A DNA stretch of 64,000 nt, from the NCBI GenBank assembly GCA_031395485.1, contig JANNUS010000012.1:149142-213141 (forward strand). The letters run 5' to 3'. This stretch comes from Cyclobacteriaceae bacterium. Lineage in GTDB: Bacteria > Bacteroidota > Bacteroidia > Cytophagales > Cyclobacteriaceae. The notes beneath the pieces are model-generated. The model had not been told where the DNA came from and did no database searches. It worked only from the letters and a program-made list of their open reading frames with translations. Both the position numbers and the translations under genes were made by a program. Each line of letters opens with the position of its first letter. Positions within the stretch are counted from its first letter, which is position 1. Positions 2-6,537 of the stretch are shown piece after piece.

Positions 2-2362
2 AGCAATGGCGTTAATACAAAGTACTTAGCCAACAATCGGCTTCAGTCCGTAAAGCAAACCTTCTTCTGGGCCGATGAAAACAATCGCAACACAACAGAC
101 CTAACCGCCTTTGCTGCTGCGTTTCTAAACACCAACCATCTTGGTAAATTCATTTCGCACTACGTGGTAATGAATGAAACGTTTAAAAACATGATGGTGC
201 TGCGGCCTTACCAATACTTTGCTACAGAAGCTATCATTAGGCAAGTTAGCACGAGCAACGAAAATGGATACATCTGGCACACTACGGGATCAGGTAAAAC
301 CTTAACTTCTTTCAAGGCCAGTCAGATTGTAATGGATTTGCCCCACGTGCACAAAGTGGTGTTTGTGGTAGATCGTAAAGACCTGGACTACCAGACCATG
401 CAGGAGTTCAACAGTTTTAAGAAAGGAAGTGTTGATGTTACGGATGATACCCGGTCGCTGGTCAAGCAACTCACCGATGAAACGAAGCTAGTACTCACCA
501 CCATTCAGAAGTTGAACAATGCCATCACCAAAGCGCATTACGAAAATCAATTAGCGCATTTAAAAGACAAGAAAATCGTTTTTATTTTTGACGAATGTCA
601 TCGCAGCCAGTTTGGCGAAACACGTGAGCGCATCACCAACTATTTTCAGAAGAGCCAGTTGTTCGGCTTCACCGGCACACCCATTTTTGCCGATAATGCC
701 AACAAGAATGAATTGGGCAAACGCACCACTAAAGATTTGTTCGGCAACTGCCTGCATAAATATGTAATCACCGATGCCATTCGCGATCAGAACGTACTGC
801 GCTTTGGTATTGAGTACGTAGGCAAGTACAAGCAAAAAGGAAATACTTTAATTGATATTGAGGTTGAGGATATTGATAAGAGTGAGGTATTGAATGATAC
901 CAGGCGACTGGAGAAAATTGCAGATTACATCATTGCTTACCACGGCCAGAAAACATTTAACAAAGAATACTCCGCGCTGTTTGCTACTACCAGCATTGAT
1001 ACCTTAATTAAATACTACGAGATATTCAAAAGAAAGAAACTGGCAGGCGAGCATGACTTACGCATTGCCACCATCTTTACCTTTGGCACCAACGAAGAGG
1101 ACGATGCAGCAAACGATTCGTTGCCCGATGAGGAATGGTCGATGGCTGCCGAGCCTGAAGCATTTTATAAACCAAGTCACAGCCGCGATAAATTAGAAGA
1201 GTTCATTGGCGACTATAACAAGCAATACGGCACTGCGTTTTCAACGAAGGACAGTCAGCAGTTTGAAAATTACTTCAAAGACATCAGCAAGCGATTAAAG
1301 GAAAGAGAGAAGGAAAGTTTCAATGATGAAAAAGATCGGCTGGATTTAGTGTTGGTCGTCAACATGCTGCTCACCGGTTTTGATGCCAAGAAGGTAAATA
1401 CACTTTATGTAGATAAAAACTTAAAGCATCACGGCTTGATTCAAGCCTTTTCAAGAACCAACAGAACATTGGGCGAACAAAAATCGCAAGGCAATATTTT
1501 ATGTTTCCGCAATCTGAAAGCAGCCACCGATACGGCCATCACACTTTTCTCAAACAAGGAAGCAATTGAAGAAATCATTTTGCCTCCGTATGAATCGATT
1601 GCCGGAAAGTTTGAGGAAGCATTAAACAATCTGTTAACGCTGGCACCCACCTGGCAAAGCGTTGATGAGTTAATAACCGAAGAACAGGAGCTTGCTTTTG
1701 TACAAGCTTTCCGGGCTTTGTTGCGCGTGAAGAATGTGTTGGCCTCTTACACCGATTTCAATTGGGCAGATTTAGGCATCGATGAACAAACCTTTGAAAA
1801 CTACAAGAGTAAATACCTTGATCTATACGATAAGGTAAGGCAAGACAATACCAAACAAAAGACCTCTATACTCGAAGATATCGACTTTGAACTGGAACTC
1901 ATTCACCGCGACCTGATCAATGTAGTCTACATTATAAAACTGTTGGCCAAGTTGAAGCAAGCTAAAACCAGCGAAGCCCAAAAGCAGAAGAAGGCAATAA
2001 TAGATTTGATAGGAGGTGATGTGCAGCTACGAAGCAAACGTGAGCTGATTGAAAAATTCATCGAAGAGAATCTCCCGCACATCGATGATGCCGACAACAT
2101 CCAGGATGAATTCGAAAAATACTGGCAAGATCAAAAAGTACTTGCCCTCGCAAAACTCTGCGATGATGAGCATTTAGACAAAGAGCAATTCAAAGCCTTA
2201 ATCGATACCTACATCTTCAATGGTCAAGACCCCTTGCGTGATGAAGTGTTGAAGTGTTTGGGCGATAGACCGAGTATTTTACAAGCGCGTGAAATAGGGG
2301 AAAGGATTATCAGTAAGATGAAGGAGTATGTAGAAGTATTTGTGATGGGGATGGTGGCGTAG
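2..2362 (+). CDS. hsdR: Type I restriction enzyme R subunit (HsdR); 5' end lies outside the window
   Basis: The frame stays open from base 2 through the listed ATG at 164. SF2 helicase motifs are present: TGSGKT (I), FDECHRSQ (II), FGFTGTP (III), QAFSRTNR (VI). A long helical C-terminal region is typical of HsdR. Confidence 0.9.
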   Translation, partial: SNGVNTKYLANNRLQSVKQTFFWADENNRNTTDLTAFAAAFLNTNHLGKFISHYVVMNETFKNMMVLRPYQYFATEAIIRQVSTSNENGYIWHTTGSGKTLTSFKASQIVMDLPHVHKVVFVVDRKDLDYQTMQEFNSFKKGSVDVTDDTRSLVKQLTDETKLVLTTIQKLNNAITKAHYENQLAHLKDKKIVFIFDECHRSQFGETRERITNYFQKSQLFGFTGTPIFADNANKNELGKRTTKDLFGNCLHKYVITDAIRDQNVLRFGIEYVGKYKQKGNTLIDIEVEDIDKSEVLNDTRRLEKIADYIIAYHGQKTFNKEYSALFATTSIDTLIKYYEIFKRKKLAGEHDLRIATIFTFGTNEEDDAANDSLPDEEWSMAAEPEAFYKPSHSRDKLEEFIGDYNKQYGTAFSTKDSQQFENYFKDISKRLKEREKESFNDEKDRLDLVLVVNMLLTGFDAKKVNTLYVDKNLKHHGLIQAFSRTNRTLGEQKSQGNILCFRNLKAATDTAITLFSNKEAIEEIILPPYESIAGKFEEALNNLLTLAPTWQSVDELITEEQELAFVQAFRALLRVKNVLASYTDFNWADLGIDEQTFENYKSKYLDLYDKVRQDNTKQKTSILEDIDFELELIHRDLINVVYIIKLLAKLKQAKTSEAQKQKKAIIDLIGGDVQLRSKRELIEKFIEENLPHIDDADNIQDEFEKYWQDQKVLALAKLCDDEHLDKEQFKALIDTYIFNGQDPLRDEVLKCLGDRPSILQAREIGERIISKMKEYVEVFVMGMVA

Positions 2363-2432: not shown

Positions 2433-2452
2433 AGTTTAGTTATAACTAAACT
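2433..2452. promoter_or_regulatory. Perfect 20-nt palindrome AGTTTAGTTATAACTAAACT; candidate operator of the toxin-antitoxin module
   Basis: The sequence is self-complementary over all 20 nt and ends 3 nt before the toxin ATG at 2456. HTH antitoxins commonly autoregulate through such palindromes. Confidence 0.4.
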
Positions 2453-2455
2453 ATA

Positions 2456-2848
2456 ATGAATAGATTTGCGTTAACTAAGATATCTCAAGTTAAGGGTCAG
2501 ATTCAATTCTGCAAGCTCATTATCGATGGAGTCTGTCAGTTTGATGAATTCTGCCTTGAAATTGAGAAAGATGGGAATCTGAGTAAACAATTGAGCACAA
2601 TTTTTAGCCGGATGGATCAAGTAGCTGGAATGAAGCTTTTGCCAAAGGAAAAATTTAGAGATATAACACCGAAAAAGAGAAATGTTAAAGAGTTTGAAAT
2701 TAAAACAAAAGACCTCCGGGTCTACCTCATCAAAGAAGAGGGACATATTGTAATTCTGGGTGGTAAAAAGAGTACCCAATCAGAGGATATAAAACATTTC
2801 AGATCAATTAAAGATCGCTACTTACAATCTAAAAAATTATTACCATGA
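2456..2848 (+). CDS. RelE/ParE-superfamily toxin, Gp49/HigB-like
   Basis: 130 aa. The C-terminal pattern EFEIKTKDLRVYLIKEEGHIVILGGKKSTQSEDIKHF is typical of Gp49-like addiction-module killers. The toxin-first order and the ATGA overlap with the downstream HTH gene fit HigBA-type modules. Confidence 0.65.
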   Translation: MNRFALTKISQVKGQIQFCKLIIDGVCQFDEFCLEIEKDGNLSKQLSTIFSRMDQVAGMKLLPKEKFRDITPKKRNVKEFEIKTKDLRVYLIKEEGHIVILGGKKSTQSEDIKHFRSIKDRYLQSKKLLP

Positions 2849-3252
2849 AAAGCCGTGAGGAACTACTTCAATCTCCTGAGTATTGGTTCGAGGAAGCGCA
2901 AAATGAACTTTACCGACAAGTAGTTGACTATAAAGAGAAAATGGGTATCAATCAAACCCAGCTTGCTGAGAAGTTAGGGGTGAGCAAGGGTTACGTTTCC
3001 CAAGTATTAAAAGGTGAATTTAATTATACTTTAAAAAAGTTAATTGAGCTCTCATTAGCTGTTGGTAAAATTCCACAAATAGAATATAAACCTATTGAGC
3101 AAGTTTTACTTGAGGATAACAATACTCAATATCTTAAAGCTGAAACGTTCGATTCTACTAAACCAAGTATGACTATCCAAAAAACTAGTGTTGAAGCTCC
3201 TATTCAAACTTCAAAAGACTCAGTGTTTATCCTATTTGCCGAAGCAGTATAA
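2845..3252 (+). CDS. XRE-family helix-turn-helix antitoxin with an extended C-terminal tail
   Basis: HTH signature INQTQLAEKLGVSKGYVSQVLKG. The start overlaps the toxin stop (ATGA). About 45 residues follow the HTH domain and end in hydrophobic SVFILFAEAV. Confidence 0.75.
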   Translation: MKSREELLQSPEYWFEEAQNELYRQVVDYKEKMGINQTQLAEKLGVSKGYVSQVLKGEFNYTLKKLIELSLAVGKIPQIEYKPIEQVLLEDNNTQYLKAETFDSTKPSMTIQKTSVEAPIQTSKDSVFILFAEAV

Positions 3253-3270
3253 TTTTGAATATTGCAAACT

Positions 3271-3729
3271 ATGAGTGATACTCCCCAAATATTTTGGTCT
3301 ATTAAGGAAATCAAGGAAATTGAATTTTTTGTAGACGAGTTCAGTAAATTAGAATCAACTCTTGATTATAATTATAACGTAGACCTTCGCCCAGCTTCGG
3401 CTGAGGATGCAGTTCGTATGACCATTACGGCTACTTATATGAAAACAGGTACAAGTGATATTCTTATGAAAGGAAAAATCATGACTGTATTTCTAATAAG
3501 AGACTTAAAATCAATGGCAAGAATAAACGAAAATGGTACTGAAGAAGTTGATTTGCCAGAACCGTTATGGATAGCGTTGTTTAGTATTGCGTTTACCCAT
3601 GCGAGAGCCATTCTTGCAAGGAGTTCTGCAGGAACAAAGTACAGTCATATGATTTTACCACCAATAAATCCTCAAACCGAATTCAAAAAGCTTTTTGGGC
3701 CATTTTTGAAGAAGGGGCGGTTCGTTTAA
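3271..3729 (+). CDS. Hypothetical protein; SecB-like chaperone candidate
   Basis: 152 aa from ATG 3271, or 155 aa from TTG 3262, on the same strand just after the antitoxin. By eye it follows the SecB layout: alternating strands FWSIKEIKEIEFFV / VRMTITATY / IMTVFLIRDL, helix LWIALFSIAFTHARAILARS, then ILPPINPQTEF. Not verified by profile search. Confidence 0.4.
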   Translation: MSDTPQIFWSIKEIKEIEFFVDEFSKLESTLDYNYNVDLRPASAEDAVRMTITATYMKTGTSDILMKGKIMTVFLIRDLKSMARINENGTEEVDLPEPLWIALFSIAFTHARAILARSSAGTKYSHMILPPINPQTEFKKLFGPFLKKGRFV

Positions 3730-3865
3730 TTGGACTCTTTACTAATCTTTGCTAACGATTTCATAACTTATATTTTATAACAAAAGCTTATCAATAGCCA
3801 ATTACAGTATGCGGATGCATTTTAACGATTTATTTACTGTTCAAAATAACATGATCACCCTCAAG

Positions 3866-3892
3866 CTATCCTGAGTTTGCAACTCAGGATAG
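3866..3892. terminator. Hairpin between convergent genes (12-bp stem, 3-nt loop)
   Basis: CTATCCTGAGTT-TGC-AACTCAGGATAG lies between the plus-strand stop at 3729 and the minus-strand stop at 3906. Confidence 0.5.
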
Positions 3893-3905
3893 GGTCGTAA
3901 TTAAT

Positions 3906-4967
3906 TCAATGACTAATTTTAATTAGATAGTCGGCAATTTCTCTCGTCTCTTCGTTTGACAAAGTAGGTTTAAAATATCCGATGTATCCAAGCAGTTCAT
4001 CTAAAGTCAAAATTTTCACGTATTGAAATTCTTCCGTTGGCTTGTGGTTTATCAGAACAATAAGGTTTCGTATTGGAATTTTTCTTTCGCCCCAATGATG
4101 CTGATCAAGTTTAAAATGGGAATTACCAGAGAGTATTTTAAATAATGCATAGTTTGTCCTTTTTATCTGTTCAACAGGAGAGCGCAGACTTAAATTTTTT
4201 AATGATTCTTTGCTCCAGTTTTTTGTCTCAATAAGAAAAATACCAGCAGGTGAAATCAACAGATGATCGATTTGAATAGTTTTTATATAACTCTTCTCTT
4301 GACTATAATAAGTGGCTTTGGGAAAGGAATAGGAGAAGTCATTAATCAAAATGTATTCATCTGATAATGTTTCTAATTCCTTAGCTACTTTCTGTTCTCC
4401 TATAGCGCCATAAATAAAAGAATTGATCTCATCAATGACTCTTTTTTTTTGGTCTAGCTCATGTAAGGCAAGACCACTGCTTTCTGTAATTGCAACTTCA
4501 AAGTTTGAAACAAGGTATTGGTAGCGTGTGCGTTTTTTATCGAGCATGTTAACCTTAGGCTGAACAGAGGATGTGATGTTTGAATGAGAAGTCAGTTCCT
4601 TGTATTTGATCTTGATTAAGATAAAGAGAGCTTTAAAACTGTACGTGAACTCTTGAATAAAACTTTTGTGCGATTCCGCCAGCGCATCAAACTGCTGTCT
4701 TAACTCCTTAACTTCGGCATGCAATTTCTGCTGAATTTCTGTTTTATCATTCGTGACTTCATTCTCTAATTGTAAAATTCCTGCGCTTAAATTATTTCTT
4801 TCTTCTGTCAGCAAAAGCTTTTGATTGGACGTAAGTTGCTCTCGGGCAGTGGAGTAATGATTTTGAAAGGATATTAGTTCATCTAAGGAATTGAAGTCAA
4901 GTTTATTTTGAAGTAAATGTGCCTTGATTGTGGTAAGAGAGCCAACAGGGTTATAGACTTTGCACAT
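3906..4967 (-). CDS. NERD (nuclease-related) domain protein with a coiled-coil N-terminal half
   Basis: The C-terminal half has the NERD signature GAIGEQKVAKELETL...IDHLLISPAGIFLIETKNW. The N-terminal ~190 aa are heptad-rich (LQLENEVTNDKTEIQQKLHAEVKELRQQFDAL). Confidence 0.8.
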   Translation of the reverse strand: MCKVYNPVGSLTTIKAHLLQNKLDFNSLDELISFQNHYSTAREQLTSNQKLLLTEERNNLSAGILQLENEVTNDKTEIQQKLHAEVKELRQQFDALAESHKSFIQEFTYSFKALFILIKIKYKELTSHSNITSSVQPKVNMLDKKRTRYQYLVSNFEVAITESSGLALHELDQKKRVIDEINSFIYGAIGEQKVAKELETLSDEYILINDFSYSFPKATYYSQEKSYIKTIQIDHLLISPAGIFLIETKNWSKESLKNLSLRSPVEQIKRTNYALFKILSGNSHFKLDQHHWGERKIPIRNLIVLINHKPTEEFQYVKILTLDELLGYIGYFKPTLSNEETREIADYLIKISH

Positions 4968-5031
4968 AGTTGCTTGTCGAATTGCTAAGGTAAGCCCTTG
5001 GTTAATTAAATCAAATGAACAAATAGCGAGA

Positions 5032-6537
5032 TTATTTCAGGCTACTTAAATACTCAAGTATTCTAACCATCGCCAGCGTATCTAATTCACAATACGCTAA
5101 TAACTGCTTTCGTTGTAGTTGCTTGGTTTCTTCATCTTGATACTTTAGCTGTGAATACACCAAACTGGCCATTCCACCTTCTTGTATTCCCAAAGCATCA
5201 TATCGTAACTCAGGAATTAGAACAGGTAAAACCTTTTTGATCGAGTAGCGACCTTTAAACTCCGGGTGATAATACCATCGCTTTTGAAAGGGGATCATTA
5301 GGTCTACGATGCGTTCATCTATTGCCAGAAGTGCATCTTCATGCTGAGGATAGATTTTTGAAAGATCATTAATTCGCGCTTTTTCAAAGCCCATATTGTA
5401 ACAGAGGATACTTCCTGCTTGTCCGAGTACTCTTATCACTTCCTCAATCAATGCTTTACGTGGATCAGTTACACCATCTCCAAGAAAAGCATGGTGTTCT
5501 ATTTCGGTTCCATTCTCACGTTGAATGTGCAATGAGAACTGAAAGGGTATTTGTTGATAAGGGCTACTAACATCAAACTCCGGGATGCCTGGCATGATTG
5601 TCTCAAAGTCAAAGAAGCATAACGGATAGGTGAGTGGTTTCAGAAATTTCTTTATCTCCTCACTGTTAATGTGCGTTTCACCAGAACGGTAGTGAGCGAG
5701 TTGCATAGCAACATTTCCATTCAAATCATAATCTTCAGGTATTTCATCAAGGTGTTTATAGCCCTCCTCATAGAGCTTCCACGCTGTTTTAGGTGCAAGA
5801 TCAAAAACCGAATCAACTTTTGGTATGTGCGACCAGCAATGATTTGTGAAATCACATTCGTATGGTTCTGAACAATGTGAACCAATATCCACCTGGGGTT
5901 CTTTCCTTTCAGCCAACAATGACTCTAGTTCAGGAACCTTATTTGTTATGAATTCCTGTTGTTCAAATACCTCATTTAAAACAGATTCTGTTGTAAACAG
6001 TTGATTGATATCGAGCTCACCATTTCTTGTATACTGATTGTTCAGGTAGATAATTGAAATGTCTTGAAGTGATATTCCGCAATTCGTAACGACAAAGTAT
6101 TGAAGAGCTGCGTCCTGTATGTGCTGTTGTTTTACCGAAGTAGTGCTCTTTACTTCAAAACCATACCAGCCATCTTTCTTTTTAACAAGAATATCCAGCG
6201 CACACAGCACGCCTTCAAATTGAAAGGCAGCTTCATAGATAATAGTTTCACCTTGCTCAATAAATTCTTTAGTCTTGGCTACGGAGAAATGGTATGAGTA
6301 GGAGTCAGGAGGAGTAGCATCAACACCGCCCGGAAAAAGACTTTGTGCAAGTTCACCGATACGTGTACCAGAATCAAAAATCGCTTGTCCCTGCTCATCC
6401 CGTGGATTCTTCAAGTCAGGTCTGAACTTATGCAGGAATAGGCGCTTAGGGCATTGACAGCCATACATAAAGGTGGACTTGGAGAGGGTGTGTTTCATAG
6501 CACTAAAATGTTTAATTATTTTGACAGACTGTGTCAT
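5032..6537 (-). CDS. DUF2779-type protein: Cas4/RecB-like PD-(D/E)xK nuclease fused to an RNase-H/DnaQ-like exonuclease domain
   Basis: N-terminus LSKSTFMYGCQCPKRLF. Nuclease core ALDILV...YGFEVKS plus QDAALQY, and Cys cluster CSEPYECDFTNHC. The C-terminal half has FFDFET...YQQIPFQFSLH, YNMGFE and YCELDTLAM. Confidence 0.8.
   Translation of the reverse strand: MTQSVKIIKHFSAMKHTLSKSTFMYGCQCPKRLFLHKFRPDLKNPRDEQGQAIFDSGTRIGELAQSLFPGGVDATPPDSYSYHFSVAKTKEFIEQGETIIYEAAFQFEGVLCALDILVKKKDGWYGFEVKSTTSVKQQHIQDAALQYFVVTNCGISLQDISIIYLNNQYTRNGELDINQLFTTESVLNEVFEQQEFITNKVPELESLLAERKEPQVDIGSHCSEPYECDFTNHCWSHIPKVDSVFDLAPKTAWKLYEEGYKHLDEIPEDYDLNGNVAMQLAHYRSGETHINSEEIKKFLKPLTYPLCFFDFETIMPGIPEFDVSSPYQQIPFQFSLHIQRENGTEIEHHAFLGDGVTDPRKALIEEVIRVLGQAGSILCYNMGFEKARINDLSKIYPQHEDALLAIDERIVDLMIPFQKRWYYHPEFKGRYSIKKVLPVLIPELRYDALGIQEGGMASLVYSQLKYQDEETKQLQRKQLLAYCELDTLAMVRILEYLSSLK

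Follow-up and report, generated by a model that had tools for sequence, protein, structure and literature searches.

Tripartite toxin-antitoxin-chaperone (TAC) systems have been known since 2011. They are made up of three co-directional, closely set genes in the order toxin, antitoxin, chaperone, the last of which is SecB-like, and most of what has been learned about them comes from Mycobacterium and Escherichia coli. A survey published in 2013, which used PSI-BLAST starting from Rv1957, listed 49 systems in seven phyla. TACs have recently been validated as a class of abortive-infection systems in which the chaperone doubles as a phage sensor, and HigBAC, MqsRAC and CmdTAC were each found to defend E. 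coli against phages (PMC9519451; bioRxiv 10.1101/2024.02.24.581848). In E. coli HigBAC, the chaperone is diverted by lambda gpV, a structural protein of the phage, which thereby acts as the trigger (bioRxiv 10.1101/2024.02.24.581848). Further marks of the class are a neutralization that takes both antitoxin and chaperone, a dependence lost when the antitoxin tail is removed (Bordes 2016, PMC5105189), and a chaperone tetramer that binds the tail. The chaperone addiction (ChAD) elements of the antitoxins vary in length and sequence and are specific to the cognate chaperone (Bordes 2016, PMC5105189; Mets 2024, bioRxiv 10.1101/2024.02.24.581848). They are recognized via aromatic residues (PMC6377645), and the ChAD of M. 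tuberculosis HigA1 contains a Val-Ala degron for ClpX (PMC8165232). Here, we examine a locus at positions 2456-3729 of a 64-kb stretch of contig JANNUS010000012.1 from a Cyclobacteriaceae bacterium (the whole stretch is referred to as the window). Its three genes probably form a tripartite TAC operon of the HigBAC type, judging from the anatomy of the locus, the folds and families of its proteins, synteny, the conservation of an operator-like palindrome, the genomic context and an asymmetry in the rates of evolution.

Open reading frame (ORF) analysis places three same-strand genes close together and in TAC order: a toxin candidate, an antitoxin candidate with an XRE-type helix-turn-helix (HTH), and a SecB-like protein (Table 1). 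The toxin and antitoxin ORFs overlap by 4 nt (ATGA), and 18 nt lie between the antitoxin stop and the ATG at 3271. The third ORF, which ends at 3729, can be read from this ATG (152 aa) or from a TTG at 3262 (155 aa). The ATG is the more likely start, being favoured both by public gene calls and by where 20 homologues begin. An initial annotation, made from the sequence alone, had placed the three ORFs and their overlap as they are given here, and it had remarked on the likeness in size between the third product and E. coli SecB, which is indeed 155 aa long (sequence verified against PDB 5jtl). It had also read the locus as a TAC-like module in a Bacteroidota defence island. The module part of this reading is now supported by a predicted SecB fold, by sequence links of family members to CmdC and SecB and by synteny in all loci examined. 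The island part agrees with the hosts of the relatives, which are Bacteroidota, and with the flanking type I restriction-modification (R-M), NERD and DUF2779/Cas4-like genes.

The AlphaFold2 (AF2) model of the third protein, built from a 21-sequence alignment (pLDDT 87.4, pTM 0.81), has a four-stranded antiparallel sheet (residues 9-21, 31-42, 47-58 and 64-76) followed by a long helix (97-119) and a C-terminal helix (134-147). The secondary structure drawn by eye in the initial annotation agrees with this model except for one strand that had been missed. Comparing the predicted fold with SecB, as had been proposed there, gave 18 Foldseek matches in the PDB at E<=1e-3, and all of these top 18 are SecB or Rv1957, with a probability of 1.00 (E 1.2e-5 to 7.5e-4; best template-modelling (TM) scores 0.60/0.63; sequence identity 11-14%). 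Among them are the H. influenzae and E. coli SecB structures 1fx3, 1ozb, 1qyn and 5jtl, together with 5mtw, in which Rv1957 is bound to its ChAD peptide. The SecB identity originally claimed therefore stands at the level of the fold, while the link through sequence is transitive and weak. The protein matches the PADLOC model PDC-M64C (9.7e-8), as do 118 of 122 distant relatives, and 14 of these 122 match PD-T4-9_C (best E 4.1e-7), the model for CmdC, which serves as chaperone in the validated CmdTAC system. A single one of the 122 matches Pfam SecB (PF02556, E 0.0026), and the sole recurrent NCBIfam matches among them are weak ones to two SecB models (5 and 3 members). One family member is named SecB in the JGI annotation. 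In a pairwise alignment with E. coli SecB, the helix-1 region falls at the equivalent position, and AR and L-x-P-[IV]-N-like motifs are common to both proteins.

How large this family appears depends on the search. A word-indexed search returned 21 close relatives (clusters at 90% identity) with 44-61% identity to the third protein, all of them unannotated and strongly conserved in the C-terminal half (FSIAFTHARAILARSSAGTKY..LLPxINPxxEFKKLFG). An exhaustive profile search returned 874 cluster representatives (at 50% identity) with E<=1e-3, 189 of them with E<=1e-10, so that the wider chaperone family is sizeable; few further members came from a profile of the broad alignment run against 5.8 billion proteins. 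From the predicted fold and the weaker sequence links, we conclude that the third protein belongs to a lineage that has the SecB fold but has diverged so far that the domain libraries now in use do not recognize it. Some chaperone homologues from Mucilaginibacter (L007:3944-4591 and L018:3842-4369) have a charged, low-complexity C-terminal extension of 25-60 residues. Canonical SecB has an acidic C-terminal tail too.

The first protein of the locus belongs to no Pfam family. It was annotated initially as a Gp49/HigB-like toxin, an assignment that is tentative: TIGR02683 (RelE/ParE family toxin) is matched by 34 of 38 homologues (best 1.7e-9), and for the protein itself the match is sub-threshold and the fold matches are non-significant. 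Pfam Gp49 is matched weakly by three of the 38 homologues, and JGI names many of them 'putative component of toxin-antitoxin plasmid stabilization module'. The AF2 model (pLDDT 94) has a RelE-like beta-alpha-alpha-beta3-alpha topology, and the top Foldseek matches in the PDB are HP0894, RelE, YafQ and the HigB of S. pneumoniae, with TM scores of up to 0.51. K83, R88 and Y90 are invariant in the family, R116, K119 and Y122 are near-invariant and K105 is conserved too. These basic and aromatic residues would suit an RNase of the RelE/ParE superfamily. Among predicted viral proteins, the toxin model has one strong structural match, the unnamed 127-aa BFVD protein A0A345KZC1 (E 1.8e-5, TM 0.67), which suggests that relatives of the toxin may be phage-borne.

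An XRE-family HTH protein encoded downstream of the toxin gene is the arrangement of HigBA/Gp49-type modules. In the antitoxin candidate, Pfam HTH_3 covers residues 30-72 (nt 2932-3060; E 2.5e-8, 34.2 bits for a cut-off of 23), and there are weak NCBIfam matches to HigA and HipB-type models. Residues 1-90 form a core that aligns across loci with 21 invariant positions. Past residue ~92, the tails of relatives cannot be aligned and range from 29 to 68 residues in length. The tail of about 45 residues noted in the initial annotation is borne out, and its variability between loci is as described for ChAD elements (Bordes 2016, PMC5105189). Every antitoxin paired with this chaperone family in the loci examined carries a long, variable C-terminal extension. 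The tails are polar, with short segments that combine acidic with hydrophobic or aromatic residues (DSVFILF, EPVFITL, EPEFIQF, QPVFITL, DNFITTTV), and five of ten close relatives end in a pair of small aliphatic residues (AV, AA, AA, IA, VA). Such a pair is reminiscent of the Val-Ala degron that M. tuberculosis HigA1 has for ClpX, and it may serve in the same way. These features are compatible with the published description of ChADs, and we regard the tail as a putative addiction element.

The three-gene arrangement is not peculiar to the window. Relatives were reached either through the chaperone (loci L004-L008, L011, L012/L014 and L016) or through the toxin (L018-L021), and a search for loci by close alignment gave four from genomes and three from metagenomes, with none from viral contigs. 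The order toxin, antitoxin, chaperone is found in the window, in 11 tabulated independent loci (L004-L007, L011, L012, L016 and L018-L021) and in L008. None of the independent loci examined departs from it, and neighbouring genes of the module overlap or lie no more than ~20 nt apart. All third genes in these loci match the chaperone family hidden Markov model (HMM). Because the order recurs in all of them, the arrangement goes beyond chance. It persists down to a chaperone identity of ~22%, where the toxin is longer and related at the level of motifs only. The named hosts of close relatives are Flammeovirgaceae, Cyclobacteriaceae, Mucilaginibacter and Marinifilum.

Although the three genes stay together, they do not evolve at the same pace. 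Over 36 locus pairs, mean identity is 61% for the antitoxin core (residues 1-90), 52% for the toxin, 33.5% for the chaperone and 23% for the antitoxin tail, and the chaperone is less conserved than both the toxin and the antitoxin core in all 36. That the word-based search found 103 toxins and only 21 chaperones is a consequence of this faster divergence of the chaperone.

A further feature common to the close relatives lies just upstream of the toxin gene. Here, the window has a perfect 18-bp palindrome, GTTTAGTTATAACTAAAC, which extends to 20 bp as AGTTTAGTTA/TAACTAAACT (2433-2452). Its consensus, GTTTAG-N6-CTAAAC, occurs once in the 64-kb window, where 0.18 occurrences are expected by chance. 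It is also present exactly once, at -22 to -5 from the toxin ATG, in all ten close-family loci with upstream DNA, a set that consists of the fetched loci of the close toxin family and includes the window DNA itself (L001). The DNA around it is otherwise unrelated between loci. The outer half-sites are invariant, whereas the central six nucleotides vary without compensation (L004, L018, L019 and L021). This pattern speaks against an RNA hairpin and in favour of a site for a dimeric protein. The near-invariant HTH of the antitoxin fits the palindrome as its putative ligand, and by analogy with other HigBA systems we infer that the antitoxin may autorepress the operon through this candidate operator.

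Taken together with what is known of characterised TACs, from which toxicity, neutralization, addiction, the involvement of a protease, the trigger and abortive infection are carried over, the locus could work as follows. The 130-aa RelE/ParE-type protein would be a translation-dependent mRNA endonuclease, which the XRE-HTH antitoxin would neutralize, and a dimer of the antitoxin would repress the operon by binding GTTTAG-N6-CTAAAC just upstream of the toxin start. The disordered tail would make the antitoxin unstable through aggregation, through ClpXP-type proteolysis at the aliphatic C-terminus, or both, unless a SecB-like tetramer were to hold the tail and stabilize the antitoxin. If the chaperone were then diverted, most plausibly by an abundant unfolded structural protein of a phage, the antitoxin would be lost and the freed toxin would shut down translation, aborting the infection. 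The adjoining type I R-M, Abi_2 and NERD genes fit a role in defence.

A number of results weigh against reading the locus as a TAC operon. Pfam finds no family in the third protein even at E<=1, so that PF02556 is not matched at its gathering threshold or at any other, and the SecB identity claimed in the initial annotation does not extend to that family; NCBIfam gives nothing meaningful for this protein. Searches of PDB sequences with the protein singly and with the close-family profile had no matches, and a broad family profile run against 177,635 PDB sequences ranked E. coli SecB first at a non-significant E of 0.64. The pairwise alignment with E. coli SecB scores low (z~2.4), and hhalign of the family profile with a single SecB sequence gave a probability of 8.6%, a value that is uninformative because the template is one sequence. 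For the toxin, the TIGR02683 match reaches 27.9 bits, below the curated cut-off of 62.85, and the Foldseek E-values (0.17-1.5) are non-significant. The Trp/Tyr-centred ChAD motifs of the M. tuberculosis and E. coli HigA proteins cannot be recognized in the tail. Finally, a scan for sigma-70 promoters and intrinsic terminators showed no enrichment over shuffled sequences with a tool that does not cover Bacteroidota promoters, and no promoter was assigned from it.

These results leave some room for a toxin-antitoxin (TA) system whose SecB-fold third component does not work by chaperone addiction and serves instead as a second neutralizing subunit, as a toxin-binding adaptor or as a phage sensor that activates the toxin without stabilizing the tail. 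Both the tail without the Trp/Tyr motifs and a chaperone family too distant from SecB for Pfam to detect would suit such a component, and PD-lambda-2C provides a precedent, since its third component is needed for defence and not for neutralization (PMC9519451). We nevertheless think this unlikely, as the closest folds are those of SecB and of the TAC chaperone Rv1957, the sequence links lead to CmdC, the antitoxins paired with this family all have the long variable extension, and the tail and the chaperone are the fastest-evolving parts, as would be expected of a co-adapting binding pair. Doubt about the toxin opens a different route, in which the operon is that of a transcription factor and its first and third products are not toxic. 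The sub-threshold toxin assignment is what speaks for it. This is very improbable in view of the 34 of 38 homologues that match a RelE/ParE toxin model, the RelE-like topology with top fold matches that are all RelE-type toxins, the ATGA-coupled order of toxin and HTH genes that is typical of HigBA/Gp49 modules (PMC11980606), and the matches of all three proteins to one PADLOC defence-candidate system. It is also highly improbable that the third gene encodes a housekeeping export chaperone of the SecB type which merely stands beside an ordinary two-gene HigBA module. Its size and fold are SecB-like and a few Pfam-recognized SecBs have been reported in Bacteroidetes (PMC4361572), yet in all loci examined the gene comes after a toxin-antitoxin pair and no more than ~20 nt away from it, its distribution is sporadic with a small close family, it lies in a low-GC defence island, and it has diverged faster than the genes next to it, which would not be expected of a core export factor. 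Both the housekeeping and the non-toxin explanations are unlikely on account of the conserved linkage and of the folds, and a TAC operon is the explanation that we adopt.

Table 1. Features of the TAC candidate locus and its neighbours, with positions in the window
Feature	Positions	Strand	Basis or remark
Type I restriction enzyme R subunit (HsdR), truncated by the window start	164..2362	+	Pfam EcoR124_C, SWI2_SNF2, T1R_D3-like, ResIII
Perfect 18-bp palindrome, candidate operator	2434..2451		Ends 4 nt before the toxin ATG
Toxin candidate, 130 aa, divergent RelE/ParE superfamily member (Gp49/HigB-like)	2456..2848	+	TIGR02683 E 2.3e-6, sub-cut-off
Antitoxin candidate, 135 aa: N-terminal helix, XRE-type HTH, C-terminal tail	2845..3252	+	Pfam HTH_3
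Antitoxin C-terminal tail, residues ~91-135 (~45 residues), ending SVFILFAEAV	3115..3249	+	Core ends near residue 90
SecB-like chaperone candidate, 152 aa (155 aa from TTG 3262)	3271..3729	+	AF2 fold, Foldseek, PADLOC PDC-M64C
NERD-domain protein, convergent with the operon	3906..4967	-	Pfam NERD, E 3.9e-16
DUF2779 / Cas4-like (PD-(D/E)xK plus RNase H-like) protein	5032..6537	-	Pfam DUF2779 6.3e-44, RNase_H_2 2.4e-5; PADLOC Cas4 9.5e-6

The surroundings of the operon can be followed beyond the edge of the window, as the window DNA is present in public assemblies (locus L001 is the same DNA). There, HsdS, an embedded Abi_2 gene and full-length HsdR (957 aa) precede the operon, and the convergent NERD and DUF2779 genes come after it. 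The Abi_2 (abortive infection) gene between hsdS and hsdR lies at L001:1291-2217, just upstream of window position 1. The operon is found directly downstream of type I R-M genes in six loci (the window/L001, L004, L005, L008, L011 and L020). In the metagenome locus L008, a 408-aa TIR-domain protein (L008:1685-2911) separates hsdR from the TAC operon, and in L011 an insertion sequence with a DDE_Tnp_1 transposase (L011:558-2420) interrupts the hsdS directly upstream of a distant TAC relative.

On the other side of the operon, the NERD gene has a relative of 62% identity at the same position in L005, a Cyclobacteriaceae metagenome-assembled genome (L005:4944-5630, minus strand); because of this relative, the HsdR-TAC-NERD segment appears to travel as a unit. 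The L005 protein has 228 aa and no NERD domain, and its truncated gene may be a pseudogene. The DUF2779 protein adjoining the NERD gene may be the product of a further defence gene of the island. Between the stops of the chaperone and NERD genes lies a perfect 12-bp inverted repeat with a 3-nt loop (CTATCCTGAGTT / AACTCAGGATAG, 3866-3892). It has a T-run on neither strand, and it could act as a terminator for both genes or be bound by a protein. GC content falls to 0.335-0.35 across ~2500-5000, which covers the TAC and NERD genes, from ~0.43 on both flanks, a dip consistent with horizontal acquisition. As for the vehicle, tblastn and blastn searches of plasmids (with the third protein, the toxin and the toxin-antitoxin DNA as queries) and a tblastn search of phages (with the third protein alone) were without a match, so that nothing in them points to carriage by a plasmid or a phage. 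Scans of all 64 kb for Rfam families and for tRNAs came back empty.

Read as above, the module in the window belongs to a type of system described before in Mycobacterium and E. coli, of which it is a divergent member that had gone unannotated. As TACs are established and PADLOC lists PDC-M64, both the kind of system and some of its relatives were on record before, and the advance is an incremental one that introduces no new principle. What is added is the reading of this lineage as TACs, which supplies a function for an uncharacterised PADLOC candidate, the extension of the class to Bacteroidota of the Cytophagia/Sphingobacteriia type, a SecB-like lineage overlooked by standard domain libraries, and two features open to direct test, namely the sharp conservation of the candidate operator and the quick evolution of chaperone and tail next to a conserved toxin and antitoxin core. 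More tentatively, and short of an even chance in our estimation, the relatives may constitute a large, essentially unannotated TAC clade, on record only as PDC-M64, in which the SecB-like protein and the tail diversify rapidly as a matched pair around a toxin, an antitoxin core and an operator that hardly change. Should this be true, the rapid diversification of chaperone and tail would mark the chaperone as the phage-sensing part exposed to an arms race, and one conserved 'warhead' would be re-targeted to different phages by swaps of chaperone and tail. The clade would then also provide a natural series for deciphering the recognition code that SecB-like sensors use, and this in a phylum largely without a housekeeping SecB.

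Of the described systems, the HigBAC type, with Rv1955-Rv1956-Rv1957 of M. tuberculosis and the HigBAC of E. coli NT1F31, is the one that the window module resembles in most respects. The order on one strand is the same, the toxin is a putative, Gp49-like member of the RelE/ParE superfamily (M. tuberculosis HigB1 is filed under PF_gp49; PMC11980606), the antitoxin has an XRE-HTH and a variable C-terminal extension, and the third protein has a predicted SecB fold, with Rv1957 (5mtw) among the top structural matches. The aliphatic pair at the end of the window antitoxin recalls the Val-Ala degron of HigA1, and the locus lies, as in these systems, in a defence-associated region that was probably acquired horizontally. 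The host phylum differs, being Bacteroidota, a phylum that goes without mention in the text of the 2013 survey (which does not name all of its seven phyla) and in the other TAC literature searched. The window chaperone differs in escaping Pfam PF02556, and the tail in having acidic-plus-VFI(T/L)-type segments in place of recognizable WxR...Y or D-aromatic-S/T motifs. The operator palindrome of the window family is very strongly conserved, and the window module is known from sequence and models.

CmdTAC (PD-T4-9) of E. coli is likewise a tripartite TAC defence system, and as noted its chaperone model is matched by some of the chaperone relatives, although not by the window protein itself. Its toxin CmdT is an mRNA ADP-ribosyltransferase (PMC11618068), not an RNase of the RelE type, and its antitoxin is unrelated. 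The PADLOC candidate PDC-M64 is matched by all three window proteins through its B and C HMMs (toxin 5.1e-5, antitoxin 1.2e-6, third protein as above). According to the text of the PADLOC paper, it is defined by its position inside known defence systems, type I R-M among them, and includes a three-gene cassette (Payne et al. 2024, bioRxiv 10.1101/2024.01.29.577857), so that on this description a type I R-M setting is common to both. PDC-M64 differs in being an uncharacterised candidate, for which the main text of that paper and the supplements searched mention neither SecB nor TACs. Membership was judged here by matches to component HMMs within one cassette, not by the system rules and thresholds of PADLOC, and because the matches are weak, the window module is a relative and not a demonstrated member. 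With canonical SecB (PF02556, known from E. coli and H. influenzae), a solitary housekeeping gene product that works with SecA in protein export, the third protein, finally, has in common its length (152 vs 155 aa) and a predicted fold of four strands and two helices (TM ~0.6). It differs in having no significant Pfam match and an identity of 11-14%, and in that its gene is not solitary: in all loci examined, the window family is linked in an operon to a TA pair.

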